A DNA stretch of 48,678 bases from a virus. The stretch is taken from IMG/VR virus record IMGVR_UViG_3300045988_107955; one strand, given 5' to 3'. Position numbers and translations under genes: made by a program. Below are positions 13,021-37,520 of the stretch, piece by piece (the stretch's first letter is position 1; every line of letters begins with the position of its first letter). The notes under the pieces are model-generated. The model saw nothing but the letters and a program-made list of their open reading frames with translations. It did not search any database and was not told the origin of the DNA.

Positions 13021-14351
13021 TGTTCCCCCTCTAGAAGATGTTTATAAAGGTATTCTTTAGCTTCTTCAGTATACCCTGCTTCATGGATACGTTCAAAGGT
13101 TTGTGACATGAAATTATCTTTTTCATAGTCATAGTAATCTTTAGTTTCTTGGTTTTTGAACCTAAAAGTGTAACCTTCATAACCCATAAGCCTGATTACT
13201 TCAGTAAGCTTGACTGCAATCTTATCTCTCCAAGGAATAACCTTGTGGATGATGAATGTCTTAATGACTTCATCCTTACCAATATTCCCTGTACCTGCAT
13301 CCAAGTCAAATACCTGTGGTGAAACACCATAAATTTGACAAGAGAAGCGTGTAGCATGGATTGATAAGAGGTTTAGGTAATCACTAGGTTTAGAATCCCT
13401 AGTCAACTGTTCCATATCACTGAAGATGTCTGAATAAATGATTGAATCATTGTACTCTACATTGGCTAGCATGTCTGCTAGTGATTTTACGTTGTCTTTT
13501 CTGACATCCTCATTGAATACAGCGTTAGAATTACTTGTATCAAAGATTTTAGCCGAAGTTGAAGGGTTTCCATCATTCTTCATCTTAGAAAGCATTGTTT
13601 CATTGTGTTTAAATGCCAATGTACCAACACCATTACGTTGAAAATCATGAATAAAGTAATCTAAGAGCTTAAGGATAAGATGAGTACGCTTTTTATCGTT
13701 CTCAAATGGGCTAACACCAATGAATGAACCATCCATAGTGATATTTGTGAAGTCTTCTGAGGTTAAAGCTATAGAATCCTTGTCATTTGAGACAATATTA
13801 CCATCATCATCAATGTAAAACCTATCATCTACCACTTCTTCAGAAGCCCTTATCCAGATATTCTTACGATTTAAGCTATGATACCGTCTTAGAATGTAGA
13901 TGAAGGGCATGTAAACAAGTGGAATTTCTTCAGATTCTCTAAAAATGATGTCATAAGAGTTCTTAGGAACAATCATAATACTATCTTTATGACCATTATG
14001 AGCTTGTTTTGCAGGAATCTTTCTTACACCTACAGCACCTTGTTCAAAAAGCTCTCTTGTAAGCTGTTTAAACATGTCTATAACTGTAATTCCTTGGATA
14101 TTTTGGGAATCTAGCATGTCTCTGAGAGTTTCACCCTCAATAGAGCTATCTTCATCCTTAACAAGCTCCATATCACCTGCAAAGATGTAGTCAACAATAC
14201 CTTCAAGAATAGTGTTAATACCTGGCATATTAGTTACTAGGTATTGCACTTGTTCATAGGTAAGTGTATCATCCATCTCATTTAGCTGTGAAGGAATCCC
14301 TATACTGTCTTTAATAAGGAGTTCATAGCCAGTTTTTCTATCAATTTCCAC
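13017..14351 (-). CDS. Portal protein
   Basis: 444 aa, immediately downstream of the large terminase with a shared base at 14351. Size and position are typical of a portal. No direct motif. Confidence 0.65.
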   Translation of the reverse strand: MEIDRKTGYELLIKDSIGIPSQLNEMDDTLTYEQVQYLVTNMPGINTILEGIVDYIFAGDMELVKDEDSSIEGETLRDMLDSQNIQGITVIDMFKQLTRELFEQGAVGVRKIPAKQAHNGHKDSIMIVPKNSYDIIFRESEEIPLVYMPFIYILRRYHSLNRKNIWIRASEEVVDDRFYIDDDGNIVSNDKDSIALTSEDFTNITMDGSFIGVSPFENDKKRTHLILKLLDYFIHDFQRNGVGTLAFKHNETMLSKMKNDGNPSTSAKIFDTSNSNAVFNEDVRKDNVKSLADMLANVEYNDSIIYSDIFSDMEQLTRDSKPSDYLNLLSIHATRFSCQIYGVSPQVFDLDAGTGNIGKDEVIKTFIIHKVIPWRDKIAVKLTEVIRLMGYEGYTFRFKNQETKDYYDYEKDNFMSQTFERIHEAGYTEEAKEYLYKHLLEGEQ

Positions 14352-15952
14352 TAATTACCTCCTTCTACACCAAGTATATATAGTTCTAGAGCATGTACAG
14401 CTAGAATAACAGCATCTAGGTCATCAGGAGACCTCTTCAGCACTTGTCTAATGACATCTTTACCAATTAGGGTAACTTTATCAAGCTCTTTGTTTTTAAG
14501 CTGTATAGCTCTCATCTGAGTCAATAGAGTTTCCTTAATTTCAGAAGCAAACACAACTTTATTTTCTTGCATAAGCTGTCTGAGAACTAAGTGCATCTCT
14601 GCTCTTCTATTTCTAGCCATTAATGCAGTATCTACATGACTTGCTACCTTCTCAGGTGTAGGTCTTCCACCAAAGTCAATAGGATATATAGTCACCCTGT
14701 CAAAGGATGGTCTATTCATCATCTCGACAATCAAGTGAGAACCTTGTCCTGTATCAATAGCAAGTGATACTACATTGTACTTCATAACTACACGCTCTAT
14801 ACCGTCTACAATTTCTCTTGTAGACCTTGCATCAGACCATTCATCAGGTCTTAAGTTGATGGTATCAGTAACCCTAACAAGGGCATCCTCTTGGGTGTCA
14901 TACATAGACAGTGCAAGGGTAATACCATCAGAACCTTTATAGGCTGAGTCAATTCCTAGAGCTGATATAGTGCGTGGTGAAATGCTACTAATGTCGTGTC
15001 TAGGAGCTACAATCATTGGAGCATTGAAGAACTCTGAGCTATTTTCATCATACTCACAAAGCAAGTTGATTCTAATAGACTCTTCAGTTCTAGCAAAGTC
15101 AGAAGCAAGTACCTCTTCAGGAGTCATTTTAATTGAGTCTGATTCCATTGAGGTAACTATGTTACCCCAAATAACAAACTCATCATCCTTCAGATTAGGG
15201 TTAGTAACAGATTCATGGAAGTGATTTAAGAAACGAGGGTTACTAATACCAAAAAGGATAAGTGATTCACCATCATCTCTTTCAAATTCACGTCTACCAA
15301 GCTCTGTTAAGGCACGTTCTGAGATAAAGTCCATCTCATCAATAAGAACATGAGAACCTTCACCAATGTTTTCATCTGAGTCCATACTAGAGAATGTATC
15401 CCCTGTAGATTTAGTATCAATCTTGTTACCATTCTTGAAAACAATCCTTGACTTACTATAAGCAGTCTCAGACCGTCCTAGGAGCTTGTCAGCCTTGCTA
15501 ATTGATGCCTTGGACTCTTCTACCAACATGTTCTTCATGTCGATACTAGCCCCTCTCAGATGCCTTCTAGCGTGTTCCATTACTTTGGCTGTCCTAGAAG
15601 ACTTAGATGCAACTACAGACACACTGTAGCTGTGCATGGCTAAATAGTTAGCTAAAGCTCCCATTATAAAGGATTTACCAAACCTAGGAGGTTCAATCAT
15701 GTAACCAGTATGATAGTCACCTGATATTAAAGCTCCAATAGCTAAAGCCTGGTCAAAGTTGAGTTCAATATTCATTTCAGCTAAGAACTCAGTATAACCT
15801 AGCTTAGCATAGTGGATTCTTTTCTCAATAGGTATTGAGTTCCTAATATAAGAGTCTGGATGTGGTATATACCCCTTTAACCAAGGAAGGAGTTCACTTT
15901 TAGGATGGACTTCACCAAGTTTTAGTTCAAGTCTATCCCTCAGTTTCCCCAT
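14351..15952 (-). CDS. terL: Terminase large subunit
   Basis: 533 aa with Walker A PPRFGKSF, Walker B-like HVLIDEMDF and a C-terminal nuclease-like region. It follows a small basic/acidic ORF and precedes the portal. Confidence 0.85.
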   Translation of the reverse strand: MGKLRDRLELKLGEVHPKSELLPWLKGYIPHPDSYIRNSIPIEKRIHYAKLGYTEFLAEMNIELNFDQALAIGALISGDYHTGYMIEPPRFGKSFIMGALANYLAMHSYSVSVVASKSSRTAKVMEHARRHLRGASIDMKNMLVEESKASISKADKLLGRSETAYSKSRIVFKNGNKIDTKSTGDTFSSMDSDENIGEGSHVLIDEMDFISERALTELGRREFERDDGESLILFGISNPRFLNHFHESVTNPNLKDDEFVIWGNIVTSMESDSIKMTPEEVLASDFARTEESIRINLLCEYDENSSEFFNAPMIVAPRHDISSISPRTISALGIDSAYKGSDGITLALSMYDTQEDALVRVTDTINLRPDEWSDARSTREIVDGIERVVMKYNVVSLAIDTGQGSHLIVEMMNRPSFDRVTIYPIDFGGRPTPEKVASHVDTALMARNRRAEMHLVLRQLMQENKVVFASEIKETLLTQMRAIQLKNKELDKVTLIGKDVIRQVLKRSPDDLDAVILAVHALELYILGVEGGN

Positions 15953-16505
15953 CTGTTCCCTCTTCTAGTCTCAATACCTCATCATGTTCTAGTTCTTTCT
16001 GTTCTTCTTTAGAACCTTTACCATAGTCTGCCCAGATATTACCTAGCTCATCAAACTTATCTAGGATAAGCTCCCTTGTAGCTGATGCAGTATTATCACT
16101 ATCATCAGTAACTAGAGCCATAGATACTTCTCTAGATACTGCTTTACCTTCAACTCTATCAGCCCACTCTTTACGTTCATCTGAACTAATCATAGATAGT
16201 TTAGTTTGAACTAAAGCATTAACCCTTGTAGCTGTAGGTACTGGAATATTTTCTACAAATTCTACATCTAGTTTTTTGACTTTATCAACTACAAGAGGGG
16301 CAATGCCCCAAAACATCTCTACTACCTCTAACTGGTCTAGAGACATTTCAGATAAAGCTCTCATTTCTGTAGAATAAGCTCTATTTTTCTTTTTTGATTT
16401 TGGTAGGTCTGAGTGACCATACCAATATTTAGGAAAGGGAATACCTTTACTAAGAAAGTAGTCTCTATCCTTACCTTCAATAGCTAATTTAATTTCATCT
16501 TTCAT
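15933..16505 (-). CDS. Terminase small subunit candidate
   Basis: 190 aa, the first gene of the late operon, overlapping terL by 20 nt. RBS AAAAGGGG lies before the ATG. Function is by position only. Confidence 0.5.
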   Translation of the reverse strand: MKDEIKLAIEGKDRDYFLSKGIPFPKYWYGHSDLPKSKKKNRAYSTEMRALSEMSLDQLEVVEMFWGIAPLVVDKVKKLDVEFVENIPVPTATRVNALVQTKLSMISSDERKEWADRVEGKAVSREVSMALVTDDSDNTASATRELILDKFDELGNIWADYGKGSKEEQKELEHDEVLRLEEGTDGETEG

Positions 16506-16534
16506 AAGTAAACCCCTTTTTACTTGAAATACAA

Positions 16535-16606
16535 TAGTTCCACCAGGAATTGAACCTGGAGTAGAGGTTTAGAAGACCTCTGTGTTATCCGTTACACCAT
16601 AGAACC
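16535..16606 (-). tRNA. tRNA-Arg(UCU): tRNA-Arg, anticodon UCU
   Basis: Hand-folded cloverleaf. Acceptor GGTTCTA/TGGAACT (two G-U pairs), D stem GTGT/ACAC, anticodon stem GAGGT/ACCTC with loop CTTCTAA, T arm CCAGG-TTCAATT-CCTGG, discriminator A. Confidence 0.9.
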
Positions 16607-16610
16607 TAAA

Positions 16611-16641
16611 ATAAAAACCATACTCCTTCCCAGGAGTATGG
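16611..16641 (-). terminator. Intrinsic terminator 4 nt upstream of tRNA-Arg
   Basis: On the minus strand: CCATACTCC-tgggaa-GGAGTATGG (9-bp stem) followed by TTTTTATTTT. Confidence 0.8.
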
Positions 16642-16770
16642 AATCTAGGAAGGAATTACAACGTAAAAATCAACCAATACCAAGGAAATAAATATAGTTA
16701 CTCATTACCCCAAACCATATCTATCTCCTTGCTACTGGTTGGTATTATAATTACTGTAGTTTACCTTCTC

Positions 16771-16841
16771 AGCCCCTAGACGGAATTGAACCGACGATAA
16801 AGCTTTTGCAGAGCCATGCCTTACCTCTTGGCTATAGGGGC
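16771..16841 (-). tRNA. tRNA-Cys(GCA): tRNA-Cys, anticodon GCA
   Basis: Hand-folded. Acceptor GCCCCTA/TAGGGGC, anticodon loop CTGCAAA, T loop TTCAATT with one T-T mismatch in the T stem. Discriminator U, as expected for Cys. Confidence 0.85.
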
Positions 16842-16908
16842 ATCAAGTAACTAATAAAAGTTACTCTAGGAATAAGAAAAAGTTATGAATCCTTTAGGAC
16901 ATACAGTA

Positions 16909-16937
16909 ATTATATATTATATTATTATAATTGTCAA
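16909..16937 (-). promoter_or_regulatory. Consensus sigma70-type promoter upstream of tRNA-Cys
   Basis: On the minus strand: TTGACA, 17-nt spacer, TATAAT. Both hexamers are perfect. Confidence 0.7.
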
Positions 16938-16939
16938 TA

Positions 16940-17765
16940 GTTATTTAGTAATTCTTAGTGATTGAGAGCTACAGACGTGCTTGCATGTCTGTACTCGAAG
17001 AACTTAGAATTACTTATTGATAAACTACAAGGGACATTTAATTAACTACAGAAGTGATTATTATTATTTATCTAATCGCTAGGCTTTGCTTTGGGGCAAG
17101 CCTAGCTAAGTAACTGAATTGGTTTGAAGACTTGCAAAACCAATGAATGTTACGGTTAATGATACTACTAATACTGACACTGACTAATGATAGTAAGAAA
17201 ATCCCCCCCCCCAACAAAAAGCTTGTAATTACTTGGGGTGGGAATAGGGAATACAGACTTCTTCAATCATCATATCTGTAAACTACAAACCTATTTCTGA
17301 GAGCAGACGACCTATCTGATTAATTAGGTTGGGATTAGTTCCCTAAACCACTATCAACAGTAGTGTCCAGTCGGAGAGACTGCTCATACTAAGTAATAAC
17401 TTAGCCTGCCCACCTTGCCAACGTTCACGTTATAGCATTTCAATACCTGTCATATCCACGTTGTGGAGAGTGCTTTTGACACACCTTTAGAGGTATCTTT
17501 ATCAGGTCAATTCCTTTAACTAGTTGCCACTAGTCGCTGGAAGAAGCTCTTTAGATATTCACTATCATGTTATTCCTTTGTTGCTGTTACAACTTAGGCA
17601 GTATAGCTTATTCTCTATTGAGTTTATTCCTCCTTAGCTACAGTGTCTCTGATACGGAGCAGTAGCAAACCTCCGTCACCAATTTTTCCAAGCCTACTTG
17701 AAGGTAAATTGTTAAGTGCGTAATTAAACCTCTGAACTCTGTAGTTCAATCTCTATTTAATTATA
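16940..17765 (-). ncRNA. Large structured non-coding RNA candidate (GOLLD/ROOL-class by context); ends approximate
   Basis: No ORF of 60 or more codons in any frame. It has its own promoter at 17800-17772. Many perfect helices were verified by eye (17078-17106, 17110-17153, 17252-17280, 17368-17382, 17455-17467, 17476-17510, 17519-17534, 17654-17676). tRNA genes follow on the same strand. The strand call rests on promoter and terminator context. Confidence 0.6.
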
Positions 17766-17771
17766 TTTACA

Positions 17772-17800
17772 ATTATAAAACATAAATTTGTAAAAAGCAA
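17772..17800 (-). promoter_or_regulatory. Near-consensus promoter for the large ncRNA locus
   Basis: On the minus strand: TTGCTT, 17-nt spacer, TATAAT. It lies directly downstream of the 17846-17804 terminator. Confidence 0.65.
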
Positions 17801-17803
17801 TAG

Positions 17804-17846
17804 AAAACACAAAAAAGAAAGCACATTCAGAGACAAATGTGCTTTC
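17804..17846 (-). terminator. Intrinsic terminator
   Basis: On the minus strand: GAAAGCACATT-tgtctctg-AATGTGCTTTC (11-bp stem) followed by TTTTTTGTGTTTTC. Confidence 0.8.
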
Positions 17847-17872
17847 TGAGGTTTGATTACGCATATTTATTA
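17808..17872 (-). ncRNA. Very short ORF-free transcription unit (about 60 nt) between promoter 17907-17879 and terminator 17846-17804
   Basis: Defined only by the flanking near-consensus promoter and the strong terminator. It has no start codon or RBS. Confidence 0.35.
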
Positions 17873-17878
17873 TAACCT

Positions 17879-17907
17879 ACTATTTTAAATAAGTCAACAC
17901 TTAAATA
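17879..17907 (-). promoter_or_regulatory. Near-consensus sigma70-type promoter
   Basis: On the minus strand: TTGACT, 17-nt spacer, TATAAT. Confidence 0.65.
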
Positions 17908-17916
17908 TAAAAAAGT

Positions 17917-17951
17917 ACAGTGTTGGATGTCTGTACTTTTTAACATGAAAT
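17917..17951. terminator. Bidirectional intrinsic terminator
   Basis: AAAAGTACAG-tgttggatgt-CTGTACTTTT, with an A-run upstream and a T-run downstream, so a U-run follows the hairpin on either strand. Confidence 0.7.
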
Positions 17952-18058
17952 AAGGAGACTTTATTATCAAGAATAGATATTAAAGTTGATATAAAATGCC
18001 AGTGTTGATGCTTACAAATCATCACTTCTAATTTATATTTGAACTATTATTAGCTCAT
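17920..18058 (-). ncRNA. Short ORF-free transcription unit (about 140 nt), candidate sRNA
   Basis: Bounded by promoter 18093-18065 and terminator 17951-17917. The only ATG-initiated frame lacks an RBS and would run through the terminator. Confidence 0.3.
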
Positions 18059-18064
18059 AGCTAT

Positions 18065-18093
18065 ATGATACATCAAAAAAGGGTCTAAGTCAA
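18065..18093 (-). promoter_or_regulatory. Near-consensus promoter whose -35 lies inside the preceding terminator hairpin
   Basis: On the minus strand: TTGACT, 17-nt spacer, TATCAT. Confidence 0.5.
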
Positions 18094-18104
18094 TACTTAA
18101 ACCC
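18075..18104 (-). terminator. Intrinsic terminator
   Basis: On the minus strand: GGGTTTAAG-tattga-CTTAGACCC followed by TTTTTT. One pair (plus-strand 18085/18100) is G-U on the minus-strand RNA but a C-A mismatch on the plus strand. Confidence 0.75.
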
Positions 18105-18164
18105 AATTTCAACAGAAAAATTAACTTAAAGGCATTTAAAGTGGCTTTCCTTCAACTACCGTAA
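18078..18164 (-). ncRNA. Short ORF-free transcription unit (about 85 nt), candidate sRNA
   Basis: It starts about 7 nt after a perfect TTGACA-16-TATAAT promoter. It contains hairpin TTAACTTA...TAAGTTAA and ends at the 18104-18075 terminator. Confidence 0.4.
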
Positions 18165-18170
18165 GTTAAT

Positions 18171-18198
18171 TATAGCAAAAGAAAAAGAGATGTCAAGT
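18171..18198 (-). promoter_or_regulatory. Consensus sigma70-type promoter
   Basis: On the minus strand: TTGACA, 16-nt spacer, TATAAT. Confidence 0.7.
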
Positions 18199-18315
18199 AA
18201 CATCCCTTATTCCCATCACAAAGTTTTAATTCTATGGAGTAAACTAATATGAATTTTCAACATTATCGCCTACACATGTAGTATAAACCATCTAAGCTAC
18301 AGAGTCAACATTTAT

Positions 18316-18594
18316 TTATGGATATTTAACTTTCTTAGCATCACTAAGCTGTTCCTTACATAACAAGTATAAATTAGTGATGTCATAACCCATACATCCA
18401 TTCTTGTTATACAAGTCCCACTTAACCTGTAGCTGTGTATAACGCTCTGATTTCTCTTCTCTTAAGTCTTCTAGCATCAGTGGTATATATCTACCCATAG
18501 CTAGTACATCATCCTTAGAAAGCTTCTTAGACACCTTAAACACCCCTTTATTTAGTATATACTCCTGGACGAATAGTAAACTTCCTTTGTACAT
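18316..18594 (-). CDS. Small hypothetical protein (92 aa from ATG 18594, or 72 aa from GTG 18534)
   Basis: The ATG start overlaps the upstream gene by 47 nt. A GTG at 18534 has a GGGG RBS about 7 nt upstream, just after the upstream stop. Confidence 0.5.
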   Translation of the reverse strand: MYKGSLLFVQEYILNKGVFKVSKKLSKDDVLAMGRYIPLMLEDLREEKSERYTQLQVKWDLYNKNGCMGYDITNLYLLCKEQLSDAKKVKYP

Positions 18595-34488: not shown

Positions 34489-35913
34489 TTACCCCTCGTT
34501 TGAAACTTCAAGATTACCCTTAATAGTAACTTTACCAAGAGCATCTTGTACTGAAGTAGATTTAATCTTTTCAAGTGCATCTACCACTTTAGCATTTGCT
34601 TCAGAAATAGCTTGTTTAATTTCTTCTGAGTCTCTAGATTGGCTAGCTAGAAATCTATCAAAGTCAGCATCAGGTAGGTTAAGATGTTTAGCTCCTGCAG
34701 ACTGTAGCTGTGTAACAGTTTCAATATCACCAATACCAAACACTCTGCCATTAACTACAGCCACATAACCAGTGGCACCACTTTGACTTCTTACTACAAA
34801 ATTCATGTTTTCATCCTCTTCTTCTACATTACTAGATGATGTTACTTCATCATCAATCAATACAATATTCTTATCTAGTCCACCTGCAATACCAGTAGAA
34901 GTAAACTGCCACCATCTCATGTGTTCTATACCAGGGAATACACCCCAATAAGGAGTAGGAGTTACTTCATAGTTAGGGTATCCTGCAATCCATAGACTAT
35001 TAGGATACTTAGCTGTTACTTGGTCGATATAGACATTTGCTAGTGTATAAGGCTTGTAGCTATAGTAAATAGGTTCAAAGCCTGCTTGTTTACACTTATC
35101 CATAAAGGCAATTACAGCATCAGTGTTAGCTTGTACGTTACCACTAGCACTATCCTCATAGTCACACACTAAGTATCTAGGTTTGCTTGGTAGATTACTG
35201 ATGAAGAAGTCAGCTTCAGATTGTGCTAAGCCTACATCTCCACCGAATCTAGCAAAGTGATAATACCCTACACAGTTACTTGTATTGGTTTGTTGAGTAA
35301 CTACAGGAGACAACCATCCAGTACCTTCAGTAACTTTAATAATGGTATTTCTAGTACCACTAGCATTACAGATGTCTGTTAGGTCTCCTGGTTGATAAGC
35401 TGATACATCAATGAAATAGTCATCTTTCTTCATACCACTAGCTACAGGAGATGATTCTGAGCTGTTAGTAACTACTGCAGTATTGTTAGCTGATTTAGGT
35501 CTAAAAGCAGTAGCAAATGTAGCTGAGTAAGGTAGAGCTACAATGTTAAATACTCCACCACCATTGGGGTTTCTTTGTTCTCCACCTTGGTTTTGACCTA
35601 AGAAGTTACCATATCCATTACCTGCATCACTGTCAAAGATAGCTACATGAGAATAAGGTGTTGAAGGTGTAACATCAAAGATAGCTACATCTCCTGATTG
35701 CATTACTTCTACTTCATCAAAGTAGTTAAGGATACCATTACTATGTCTTTGAGTCCACAGGTCTTGTGCATATCCACTGTCAGTACAGTTAATAACAGGA
35801 ACACCTAAGTAGTTACAGTATTCTGCAAAACCATCCCAACATTGGTCTCCAAACCAACCATCAATGTCATAACCATTACCAAGGTGAGTATTTTTAAAGT
35901 CTTGATAACTCAT
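34489..35913 (-). CDS. Endolysin: CHAP endopeptidase + GH25 muramidase + C-terminal domain
   Basis: CHAP: FGDQCWDG...YSHVAIF. GH25: IDVSAYQ, IIKVTEG, YHFARF, DYEDSA. The N-terminal 350 aa closely resemble the streptococcal phage B30/PlyGBS-type lysin as I remember it. Confidence 0.85.
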   Translation of the reverse strand: MSYQDFKNTHLGNGYDIDGWFGDQCWDGFAEYCNYLGVPVINCTDSGYAQDLWTQRHSNGILNYFDEVEVMQSGDVAIFDVTPSTPYSHVAIFDSDAGNGYGNFLGQNQGGEQRNPNGGGVFNIVALPYSATFATAFRPKSANNTAVVTNSSESSPVASGMKKDDYFIDVSAYQPGDLTDICNASGTRNTIIKVTEGTGWLSPVVTQQTNTSNCVGYYHFARFGGDVGLAQSEADFFISNLPSKPRYLVCDYEDSASGNVQANTDAVIAFMDKCKQAGFEPIYYSYKPYTLANVYIDQVTAKYPNSLWIAGYPNYEVTPTPYWGVFPGIEHMRWWQFTSTGIAGGLDKNIVLIDDEVTSSSNVEEEDENMNFVVRSQSGATGYVAVVNGRVFGIGDIETVTQLQSAGAKHLNLPDADFDRFLASQSRDSEEIKQAISEANAKVVDALEKIKSTSVQDALGKVTIKGNLEVSNEG

Positions 35914-36557: not shown

Positions 36558-37520
36558 CTACTTACCTTCTTCTTTAGGTTTAGTGTCCTCTTCTTTTTTC
36601 TTCTTCTCTTCTTCTTCCTTTTGCTTACGCTCAGCAATCTTTTCATCTGACCAATCACAAGCACCACATAGTACGTTACAAGGGTCAGTAGGCAATCCAA
36701 TATTAGGGTTGTGGTTAATGTATTGAGCTGTAATACTACTCCTTGTAGGAGCAAATACCCATTCATCTAAAGTAGATAGCATCTTAAGAACATCAGATGA
36801 ACCACCTTCAGGTTTAAGGTCAAATTCTTTATTGTATTCAAGTGTTCTATTGATGTCTTGTTCCCAAGATTGGCCAGGGTCATATCCTTTTTGGAAAACT
36901 ACATTGTTATCAATATCATAGATAGTGAATCTACCATTATGATTAGTAGTAGGTGCTTTATTGACATACTTAATTTTATCAATTCTGATAGCACTAATTT
37001 TAGCATGGATAGAACCATCTTTATTAGGTGTGTAGCTATGAATTACTTTACCAAAAACATTACCAACACCAACTTCACCTGTTTCTACCATATTCCATAC
37101 AATAGTAAAATTACCATTAGTGTCAGTCTTAACTACACTATAAGTAGTACCACCTGATGTAGATGTTTGTGTACCATCTGACTTCATAGCTAACTCTACA
37201 TTGTCACTTAACTTACCAATTAGGAAGTCTACAAGAGCATTTAGTTTCTTTTCATGACAGTTAGCTACAGCACATAGGTTATCTACACGCTTATCTAAAT
37301 TAACTACCATAATAAGCAAGTCTCTTAGGAAACACCATAAGAAGTAAGCATATTGAGCTAGTCTTTTAGGTAGACCTACACAAGATGTATTTGCTAGTAA
37401 ACAAGTATAGTCTTTCAAGACCTTAAGCTTCTTTTCCATTACATCTTGTCTTTGTTCTACCTCTACACAGACATCAATCTTTTCACATTGACAATCTCCA
37501 CATTGTCCTAAGCAAGACAT
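36558..37520 (-). CDS. Cys-capped fibre-like protein P4 (320 aa), N-terminal paralogue of 37520-39082
   Basis: MSCLGQCGDCQCEK...KLKVLKDYTCLLANTSCVGLPKRLAQYAYFLWCFLRDLL aligns by eye with the P3 N-terminus. The C-terminal tail is rich in Lys and Glu. Confidence 0.5.
   Translation of the reverse strand: MSCLGQCGDCQCEKIDVCVEVEQRQDVMEKKLKVLKDYTCLLANTSCVGLPKRLAQYAYFLWCFLRDLLIMVVNLDKRVDNLCAVANCHEKKLNALVDFLIGKLSDNVELAMKSDGTQTSTSGGTTYSVVKTDTNGNFTIVWNMVETGEVGVGNVFGKVIHSYTPNKDGSIHAKISAIRIDKIKYVNKAPTTNHNGRFTIYDIDNNVVFQKGYDPGQSWEQDINRTLEYNKEFDLKPEGGSSDVLKMLSTLDEWVFAPTRSSITAQYINHNPNIGLPTDPCNVLCGACDWSDEKIAERKQKEEEEKKKKEEDTKPKEEGK

Follow-up and report, generated by a model that had tools for sequence, protein, structure and literature searches.

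The window analysed here is a 48,678-nucleotide stretch of viral DNA (IMG/VR record IMGVR_UViG_3300045988_107955), the genome (about 48.7 kb) of a phage that encodes a terminase, a portal, a lysin, and a Clp-type structural module. Upstream of its terS gene and of two tRNA genes lies an interval that encodes a highly structured non-coding RNA (ncRNA) of about 0.8 kb, read from the minus strand and equipped with its own conserved promoter:

16947-17765, minus strand: large structured ncRNA, spanning about 820 nt when measured from its predicted start through the 3' hairpin; recognized by covariation, a G-U excess, the lack of a conserved open reading frame (ORF), and the lack of an Rfam match.

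Large ornate RNAs of bacteria and phages are rare (OLE, GOLLD, ROOL, raiA, and few others), and each has been structurally surprising. The RNA described here has the attributes of this class: a length of 500 nt or more, numerous helices supported by covariation, tertiary contacts, and no ORF that is conserved. It represents a new family of such phage RNAs next to tRNA genes, and no catalogued family matches it. An initial annotation, made from the window alone, had pointed to an independently promoted, hairpin-dense ncRNA gene of about 0.8 kb adjoining the phage tRNA genes, and that much is supported.

Relatives in IMG/VR whose TerL protein is 99% identical share merely 81-84% identity in the intergenic DNA, so variation was available for a structure test. 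A metagenome scan with an invariant 18-mer supplied about 20 further contigs, mostly of 49-50 kb. Removal of duplicates left 24 distinct RNA sequences, from contigs of the same phage species, and these form the alignment A3. The RNAalifold model of A3 contains 211 pairs in 34 helices. Across the 24 sequences, 97.2% of cells in these pairs are paired, compared with 35.5-43.3% when partners are slid by one to three columns. Double-sided changes affect 37 pairs (slid controls, 1-5) and 221 cells (slid controls, 1-15). For all three measures (paired cells, double-change pairs, and double-change cells) the observed value was reached by 0 of 500 shuffles. Covariation in the homologous intergenic region of related phages, which the initial annotation had named among its checks, thus supports the structure.

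The wobble pairs identify the strand: G-U combinations fill 340 cells and A-C combinations 30, so the minus strand is the RNA. Minimum free energy z-scores are -3.95 for the minus and -4.68 for the plus strand; both fold better than shuffled sequence. A small-protein gene was considered and rejected. The longest ORFs of the homologues shift in position, strand, and length (27-67 amino acids), so translation is not conserved, and the 24 homologues have no conserved ORF.

The initial annotation had also proposed membership in the GOLLD or ROOL family, with a new large phage RNA as the fallback. Covariance-model scans against Rfam 15 covered both strands of 1.9 kb around the locus (16500-18400), of the RNA alone (16940-17775), and of a diverged copy on a Logan contig, L106. 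At gathering score they returned two tRNAs only. At E<=10 with permissive filters there was no GOLLD, ROOL, OLE, intron, RNase P, or other relevant match in the window or in L106, and the relatives gave none either; the classes unmatched within Rfam 15 also include tmRNA, 6S, HEARO/omega RNA, and riboswitches. The sole match inside the RNA is noise (CRISPR-DR60, 16.8 bits, E 6.2, opposite strand). The same procedure did recover ROOL, at 130.4 bits (E 3.5e-28), from 1.9 kb of Ligilactobacillus salivarius pMP118, a stretch that holds the long non-coding RNA (lncRNA) described in PMC5643018. The negative result for GOLLD was controlled by ROOL only, the presence of a GOLLD model in Rfam being taken from PMC12286853. 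Blastn in distant mode, with the interval against 50,697 phage records, gave no match, and no occurrence of the conserved sequence blocks was found in the papers and supplements searched. The proposed membership is therefore not borne out. Because no Rfam 15 model matches at E<=10 while the ROOL control is positive, and no phage record matches by blastn, it is the fallback that applies: neither family was matched, and the RNA is new.

About six domains make up the overall fold, which is closed by a long-range helix, contains three or more pseudoknots and a variable linker, and has a near-invariant hairpin at its 3' side. A variable leader follows the predicted start near 17765. In 5' to 3' order the elements are these:

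17748-17739 with 17030-17021, minus strand: closing helix P1, 97.5% paired, varying only through G-U wobble.
17640-17748, minus strand: domain D1, with the 5' strand of P1, covarying hairpins 17711-17680 and 17676-17654, and a single-stranded-looking segment, 17736-17717.
17497-17639, minus strand: domain D2, with an irregular long hairpin (17633-17539), a hairpin at 17535-17518, and a GGG-AAUUAA-CCC hairpin (17515-17504) followed by AUAAA.
17416-17496, minus strand: domain D3, in which a helix (17496-17491 with 17448-17443) surrounds two invariant hairpins.
17236-17415, minus strand: domain D4, multi-branched, with closing helix 17415-17409 with 17242-17236.
17154-17235, minus strand: variable linker, which contains a conserved G7-G11 run (17212-17203) as well as the 3' arms of PK1, a pseudoknot; mean pairwise identity 67%.
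17072-17153, minus strand: domain D5, with hairpin 17153-17110 (invariant 11-nt loop UGCAAGUCUUC, 17136-17126) and hairpin 17106-17078 (C-rich loop).
16947-17014, minus strand: near-invariant 68-nt 3' hairpin, 26 bp with a CAAG loop and no U-tract; 99% mean identity, two compensatory pair changes.

D2 has the highest sequence conservation of these domains, and its GGG-AAUUAA-CCC hairpin and AUAAA are identical in L106. In D3, all four pairs of hairpin 17431-17420 covary, the alleles across phages being AACG/CGUU, GUCA/UGAC, AACU/AGUU, and GAUU/AAUC. Three pairs covary in the closing helix of D4 and five in its hairpin 17281-17251; the D5 hairpin 17106-17078 occurs as three compensating alleles. 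The 3' hairpin (17014-16947) is a candidate processing or protein-binding site. Its positions 16981-16995 hold a 15-mer, AGTACAGACAT(G/C)CAA (minus strand), that recurs at 17923-17937 in a hairpin upstream of the RNA (17946-17905) and could be a common protein-binding or processing motif.

The G-run at 17203-17212 ranges from G7 to G11 among homologues and is G8 in L106. Two C-rich hairpin loops, near 17330-17341 and near 17088-17096, are candidate partners, and covariation favours neither. Pairing of the run with the window's CCCACCCC was rejected, as it is not conserved.

A scan of all column pairs for contacts outside the nested model located three pseudoknots:

17187-17270, minus strand: PK1, 12 bp, joining a D4 loop to the linker (17270-17265 with 17192-17187, and 17263-17258 with 17200-17195); found by covariation.
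17637-17666, minus strand: PK2, loop GCUAC (17666-17662) with GUAGC (17641-17637); C-G changes to U-A in three sequences.
17434-17528, minus strand: PK3, a long-range loop contact of GGCA (17528-17525) with UGCU (17437-17434); A-U changes to G-C in three sequences.

All have covariation support, and jointly they are 99.8% paired, against 33-48% in slid controls. PK1 contains four covarying pairs, one of which appears as C-G, U-A, A-U, and G-C. PK2 competes with a nested helix (17639-17634 with 17049-17044) that loses one pair in both compensated sequences that reach its 3' strand. The local helix that competes with PK3 is broken in the same three compensated sequences.

The initial annotation had listed nine helices read by eye, six of which persist in the homologues, five with compensatory changes: 17078-17106, 17110-17153, 17252-17280, 17519-17534, and 17654-17676. 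The sixth, 17455-17467, is kept in 24 of 24 sequences; it never varies and thus yields no covariation evidence. The helix at 17476-17510 was partly right, since covariation favours 17491-17496 with 17443-17448. Two others are not conserved: the C10:GGGGTGGG helix (17203-17242), whose segment 17236-17242 pairs instead with 17409-17415 (three covarying pairs), and the helix at 17368-17382, which is specific to the window's sequence.

A strongly diverged copy of the RNA lies in L106, whose TerL is 85% identical to that of the window phage. Synteny is the same: terminator/promoter, RNA, TTGACA promoter, tRNA-Cys, tRNA-Arg, terS. Covariance models of D4 (186 positions) and of D2 (138 positions, model R2) find this copy at 49.3 bits (E 7e-10) and 45.8 bits (E 5.6e-8), respectively. 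The two domains stand in correct order, with compensation in many helices. Once L106 is included, double-sided changes appear in 29 of the 44 pairs in D4, and pairing holds in 99.3% of cells; these counts lean towards structure, as the alignment was fitted to the model.

Beyond L106 the searches returned little. IMG/VR was scanned with 16-20-mers from conserved sequence, with a hairpin motif in degenerate form, and with two TerL proteins as queries; these scans retrieved only the same six or seven contigs and some chance matches that fell inside ORFs, for example in L065 and L129. A scan of genome contigs gave no homologue and five chance matches, so it provides no prophage or host assignment. 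Several short Logan contigs stop before the locus. Lactococcus phage P087 gave no Rfam match and lacks a comparable ORF-free gap ahead of its terminase gene. Another relative, L105 (TerL 52% identical), has a 1.3-kb ORF-free stretch (L105:1-1348) with a TTGACA-17-TATAAT promoter at 249-277 and a terminator-like hairpin near 1045-1080. The D4 model scores 17-18 bits there, at 496-652, with E about 0.05, which is noise level; this stretch may hold a large RNA that is either remotely homologous or analogous.

A tRNA-Cys(GCA)/tRNA-Arg(UCU) pair occurs upstream of terS in the window (16535-16841), in L106 (4991-5164), and in L107 (4794-4984), the sampled member of a large cluster with TerL 38-39% identical. 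L105 has the tRNA-Cys only, and relatives with TerL 63-66% identical have neither tRNA.

In the window, the locus occupies the boundary between the early region and terS-terL. No ORF of at least 60 amino acids occurs across 16506-18315, where the longest has 49 codons; the ORF-free interval reported initially is thus real and extends further than was claimed, from terS (16505-15933, minus strand) to the next upstream gene (18594-18316). GC content is 0.39-0.41 within the RNA (17150-17750) and 0.24-0.31 in the upstream non-coding DNA (17750-18350). The minus-strand order is promoter (17800-17772), RNA of about 0.8 kb, consensus promoter, tRNA-Cys, tRNA-Arg. The signals and genes around the RNA, predicted from sequence, are as follows:

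17816-17847, minus strand: intrinsic terminator, 14-bp stem plus T-run, ending an upstream small transcription unit (transcription-signal scan).
17772-17800, minus strand: large-RNA promoter, TTGCTT-17-TATAAT, with a predicted start near 17765.
16909-16937, minus strand: sigma-70 consensus promoter of the tRNA unit, TTGACA-17-TATAAT, directly 3' of the large RNA (transcription-signal scan).
16771-16841, minus strand: tRNA-Cys (GCA), found by ARAGORN and Rfam.
16535-16606, minus strand: tRNA-Arg (UCU), found by ARAGORN and Rfam.

The large-RNA promoter is conserved across 23 homologues, nearly every position being invariant or at least 90% conserved. Its earlier description as near-consensus holds for the -10 element and the spacing; the -35 element matches TTGACA at three of six positions. 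The terminator placed just before it in the initial annotation is confirmed by the signal scan and is kept in most homologues; a different hairpin takes its place in L002 and L072. Also confirmed are the perfect promoter (12 of 12 matches, 16937-16909) and both tRNA genes downstream. A TTGACA/TATAAT promoter is retained in every homologue that reaches this point, L106 included. The tRNA-Cys gene starts about 105 nt downstream of the large RNA. A terminator-like hairpin (16641-16618) separates the two tRNAs, preceding tRNA-Arg, and has a counterpart in L106. The signal scan found no intrinsic terminator between the large RNA and the tRNA promoter; therefore, transcription probably continues into the tRNA unit.

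Many independent assemblies (L003, L004, L011, L013, and L108-L111) terminate in or beside the locus. These breaks fit either strain-level heterogeneity that splits the assembly graph or a nearby physical genome end.

The remaining ORF-free stretch on the minus strand, 17770-18315, is a chain of small terminator/promoter units, predicted to yield several small RNAs of 50-250 nt. In two cases the -35 box lies inside a terminator stem: 18208-18185 (promoter 18196-18169) and 18104-18081 (promoter 18093-18065). The chain continues with the hairpin at 17946-17905, the promoter at 17897-17869, and the terminator at 17847-17816. The last small unit lies just upstream of the large RNA:

17808-17897, minus strand: small unit with promoter (17897-17869), an RNA of about 55 nt, and terminator (17847-17816), from the signal scan; the RNA is predicted.

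The first 19 nt of this predicted RNA (17863-17844) are complementary to the single-stranded-looking segment of D1 (17736-17717); in the window, 17 of the 19 pair. Covariation links the two arms, as GCGUAAU:AUUACGC, GCUUUAU:AUAAAGC, and GCUUAAU:AUUAAGC. At least 14 of the 19 positions pair in 13 of 23 homologues, and those with a replaced upstream unit have lost the pairing. The small unit is possibly part of the large-RNA system.

Other interpretations were rejected as well. Against an invertible promoter flanked by the 20-nt inverted repeat, 23 of 23 homologues share one orientation, and no recombinase gene was present among the 24 window ORFs scanned, a search limited to those ORFs rather than the whole genome. 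Tandem repeats, whether as a CRISPR array, ToxI-like, or of another type, were dismissed because no repeat families were found. The small proteins encoded nearby had no informative family match in Pfam or PHROG scans.

Phages of this species are 93-100% identical in their structural genes, and the RNA is a local minimum of identity. L074, for example, is 99-100% identical to the window over 13250-16750 and 77-81% identical over 17000-17500. Within the RNA, mean pairwise identity is 86-88% in D1-D3, 79% in D5b, 74% in D4b, 67% in the linker, and 99% in the 3' hairpin. Clustering of alleles domain by domain reveals free reassortment among phages (24 sequences). The RNA gene is a recombination hotspot, a mosaic of exchangeable modules in which pairing is preserved. 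Such module-wise hypervariability with compensated structure, in near-identical phages, suggests selection by the host.

GOLLD and ROOL are large phage and prophage RNAs, often near tRNA islands; their cages are homo-oligomers held by kissing loops and A-minor contacts and include a poorly conserved linker (PMC12286853). The present RNA resembles ROOL (RF03087) as a large phage/prophage RNA of Lactobacillales beside tRNA genes, with pseudoknots, a weakly conserved internal linker, and no associated protein gene (PMC12286853), and its location in a phage genome close to tRNA-Cys is typical. It differs in length (about 800 nt, against 574 for the ROOL model), in its lack of covariance-model similarity at E<=10, and in that part of its variable linker forms a covarying pseudoknot. 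Cage assembly is a feature of ROOL, whereas the present RNA is known from sequence alone.

The likeness to GOLLD lies in size (about 800 nt), phage/prophage setting, tRNAs near or within the RNA, Lactobacillales, and an ornate multi-domain fold. The present RNA, at about 820 nt, has tRNAs adjacent and none internal, and it has no covariance-model match. In GOLLD the 3' region is conserved and the 5' region less so (PMC12286853). Here the conserved part is instead 5' (D1-D3), while D4b, the linker, and D5b vary and only terminal hairpins are conserved on the 3' side. The RNA-only cages of both families exceed the ribosome in size; to our knowledge, the function of either RNA is still unknown.

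Two further comparisons are instructive. Staphylococcal Kayvirus (phage K) lncRNAs are abundant, lie next to tRNA genes, and were likened by their authors to GOLLD and ROOL (PMC9241854). They share with the present RNA the adjacency to tRNA genes in a phage of Bacillota, but were defined by expression, whereas the present RNA was defined by covariation. The phage records that gave no blastn match presumably include Kayvirus genomes. OLE is an ornate Bacillota RNA of about 600 nt, with many conserved helices, that forms a homodimer through palindromic loops (PMC12286853). Unlike the present RNA, it is chromosomal and has dedicated protein partners (e.g., OapC), and there is no covariance-model match.

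Slightly more likely than not, the large RNA is of the same kind as GOLLD and ROOL and would act in trans as a stable folded particle. D1-D3, the conserved core at the 5' side, would form its scaffold, whereas specificity under host-driven diversifying pressure would reside in the linker and the 3' modules, which evolve fast and recombine. Its 3' end might be made by processing, either at the invariant 3' hairpin, with that hairpin as an RNase III-like substrate, or through the enzymes that process tRNAs. Invariant loops, UGCAAGUCUUC among them, could plausibly mediate self-assembly or binding of proteins, which is offered as a hypothesis only.

Several points weigh against this trans-acting particle. 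The family is narrow: one phage species and L106. The large RNA is absent from relatives with TerL 63-66% identical (L104, L112, and L140-L142) and from L107, which keeps the tRNA pair. Covariation comes mostly from alleles that recombine inside one species, so independent events are fewer than the cell counts suggest. No loop displays palindrome-to-palindrome covariation. The transcript, its ends, and its abundance are deduced from promoter and terminator logic. Finally, a position directly upstream of tRNAs and the late operon, with terminators downstream, suits a role in cis equally well.

Such a role, as a leader of the tRNA/packaging/late transcript, is the strongest competitor, though we consider it unlikely. 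The leader could direct processive antitermination past the hairpin at 16641-16618, in the manner of put or EAR, or could be a scaffold for folding and processing of the tRNA precursor. No terminator separates the RNA from the tRNAs, the terminator-like hairpin between the tRNAs is present in both the window and L106, and the locus sits at the early/terS-terL boundary. The processive antitermination RNAs (HK022 put, Bacillus EAR) are likewise promoter-proximal structured RNAs upstream of terminators and a long operon. However, they are 60-120 nt long, with two or three hairpins, compared with 800 nt and six domains here, and the present RNA is followed by a separate consensus promoter ahead of the downstream genes. 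That 12-of-12 promoter makes the tRNAs independent of the upstream transcript, and L107 lacks a large RNA yet has the tRNA pair ahead of terS. Hypervariable modules, moreover, would be unexpected in an element that touches the conserved RNA polymerase.

Somewhat less probable still is an anti-defence decoy or sponge acting in trans, a bait for an RNA-sensing or tRNA-targeting defence nuclease, whose modules would track host variants. Its appeal is the mosaicism: an RNA core about 20% different between phages whose flanks are 99-100% identical, with shuffled modules. The RNA also adjoins phage tRNA genes, and phage tRNAs are often interpreted as a counter to depletion of host tRNAs. The upstream small RNA, being complementary to D1, suggests a regulated RNA-RNA interplay that would suit a decoy. 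Yet neither a defence nor an anti-defence partner was identified, small proteins encoded nearby gave no informative family matches, and non-coding or early regions of phages are often mosaic without any such role.

That the RNA is a strongly divergent GOLLD or ROOL member missed by the Rfam models is very improbable. Length (about 0.8 kb), phage and tRNA context, probable Lactobacillales host, pseudoknots, and variable linker would all agree. Nevertheless, two divergent homologues gave no match at E<=10 with permissive filters, in a procedure that found ROOL at 130 bits, and the pattern of conservation is reversed, with a conserved 5' core and variable 3' half in place of the conserved 3' region of GOLLD. 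Least credible of all is a DNA-level element (origin, cos/pac, or recombination site) or a decayed protein gene: a position upstream of terS is frequent for cos sites and several assemblies break at the locus, but the wobble asymmetry points to RNA, covariation extends to long-range helices and pseudoknots, the locus has a conserved promoter of its own, and no reading frame is conserved.

A bolder form of the trans-acting particle, which we regard as doubtful, is a third, independently evolved self-assembling phage RNA particle, with a conserved 5' scaffold, swappable and rapidly recombining 3' modules of specificity, and a regulatory small RNA that pairs with D1, which together would be an RNA-only system in a phage-host arms race. 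In any case, a new non-homologous family occupies the same niche as GOLLD and ROOL: phage, beside tRNA genes, probable Lactobacillales host. An unrelated family in the same niche adds weight to the view that the link between tRNAs and large RNAs reflects a shared role rather than common descent, and it offers an independent system for testing that role. Module-wise hypervariability and the possible partner small RNA are two unusual handles on the family, and the alignment and structure model are ready for chemical probing and cryo-EM.

The host of the phage is probably a Streptococcus, judging from the likeness of its endolysin and from an adhesin domain. The two proteins are encoded at 34489-35913 and 36558-37520. 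The endolysin shares 62-64% identity with B30-type lysins of Streptococcus agalactiae phages; its GH25 domain is above the Pfam cut-off, and a CHAP match is sub-threshold (24.3 vs 26 bits). The neighbouring protein carries an adhesin BspA variable domain (BspA_v). The host clade initially suggested, Lactobacillales, is thus probable. Among cultured phages, P087 has the closest TerL (about 25% identity), and the contig of one relative is labelled gut metagenome.

In L107, an AT-rich, iteron-like repeat array (L107:3930-4130; variants of TTAGTTACTAAGT) lies upstream of the RuvC-like gene and the tRNA pair, and may be a replication origin.

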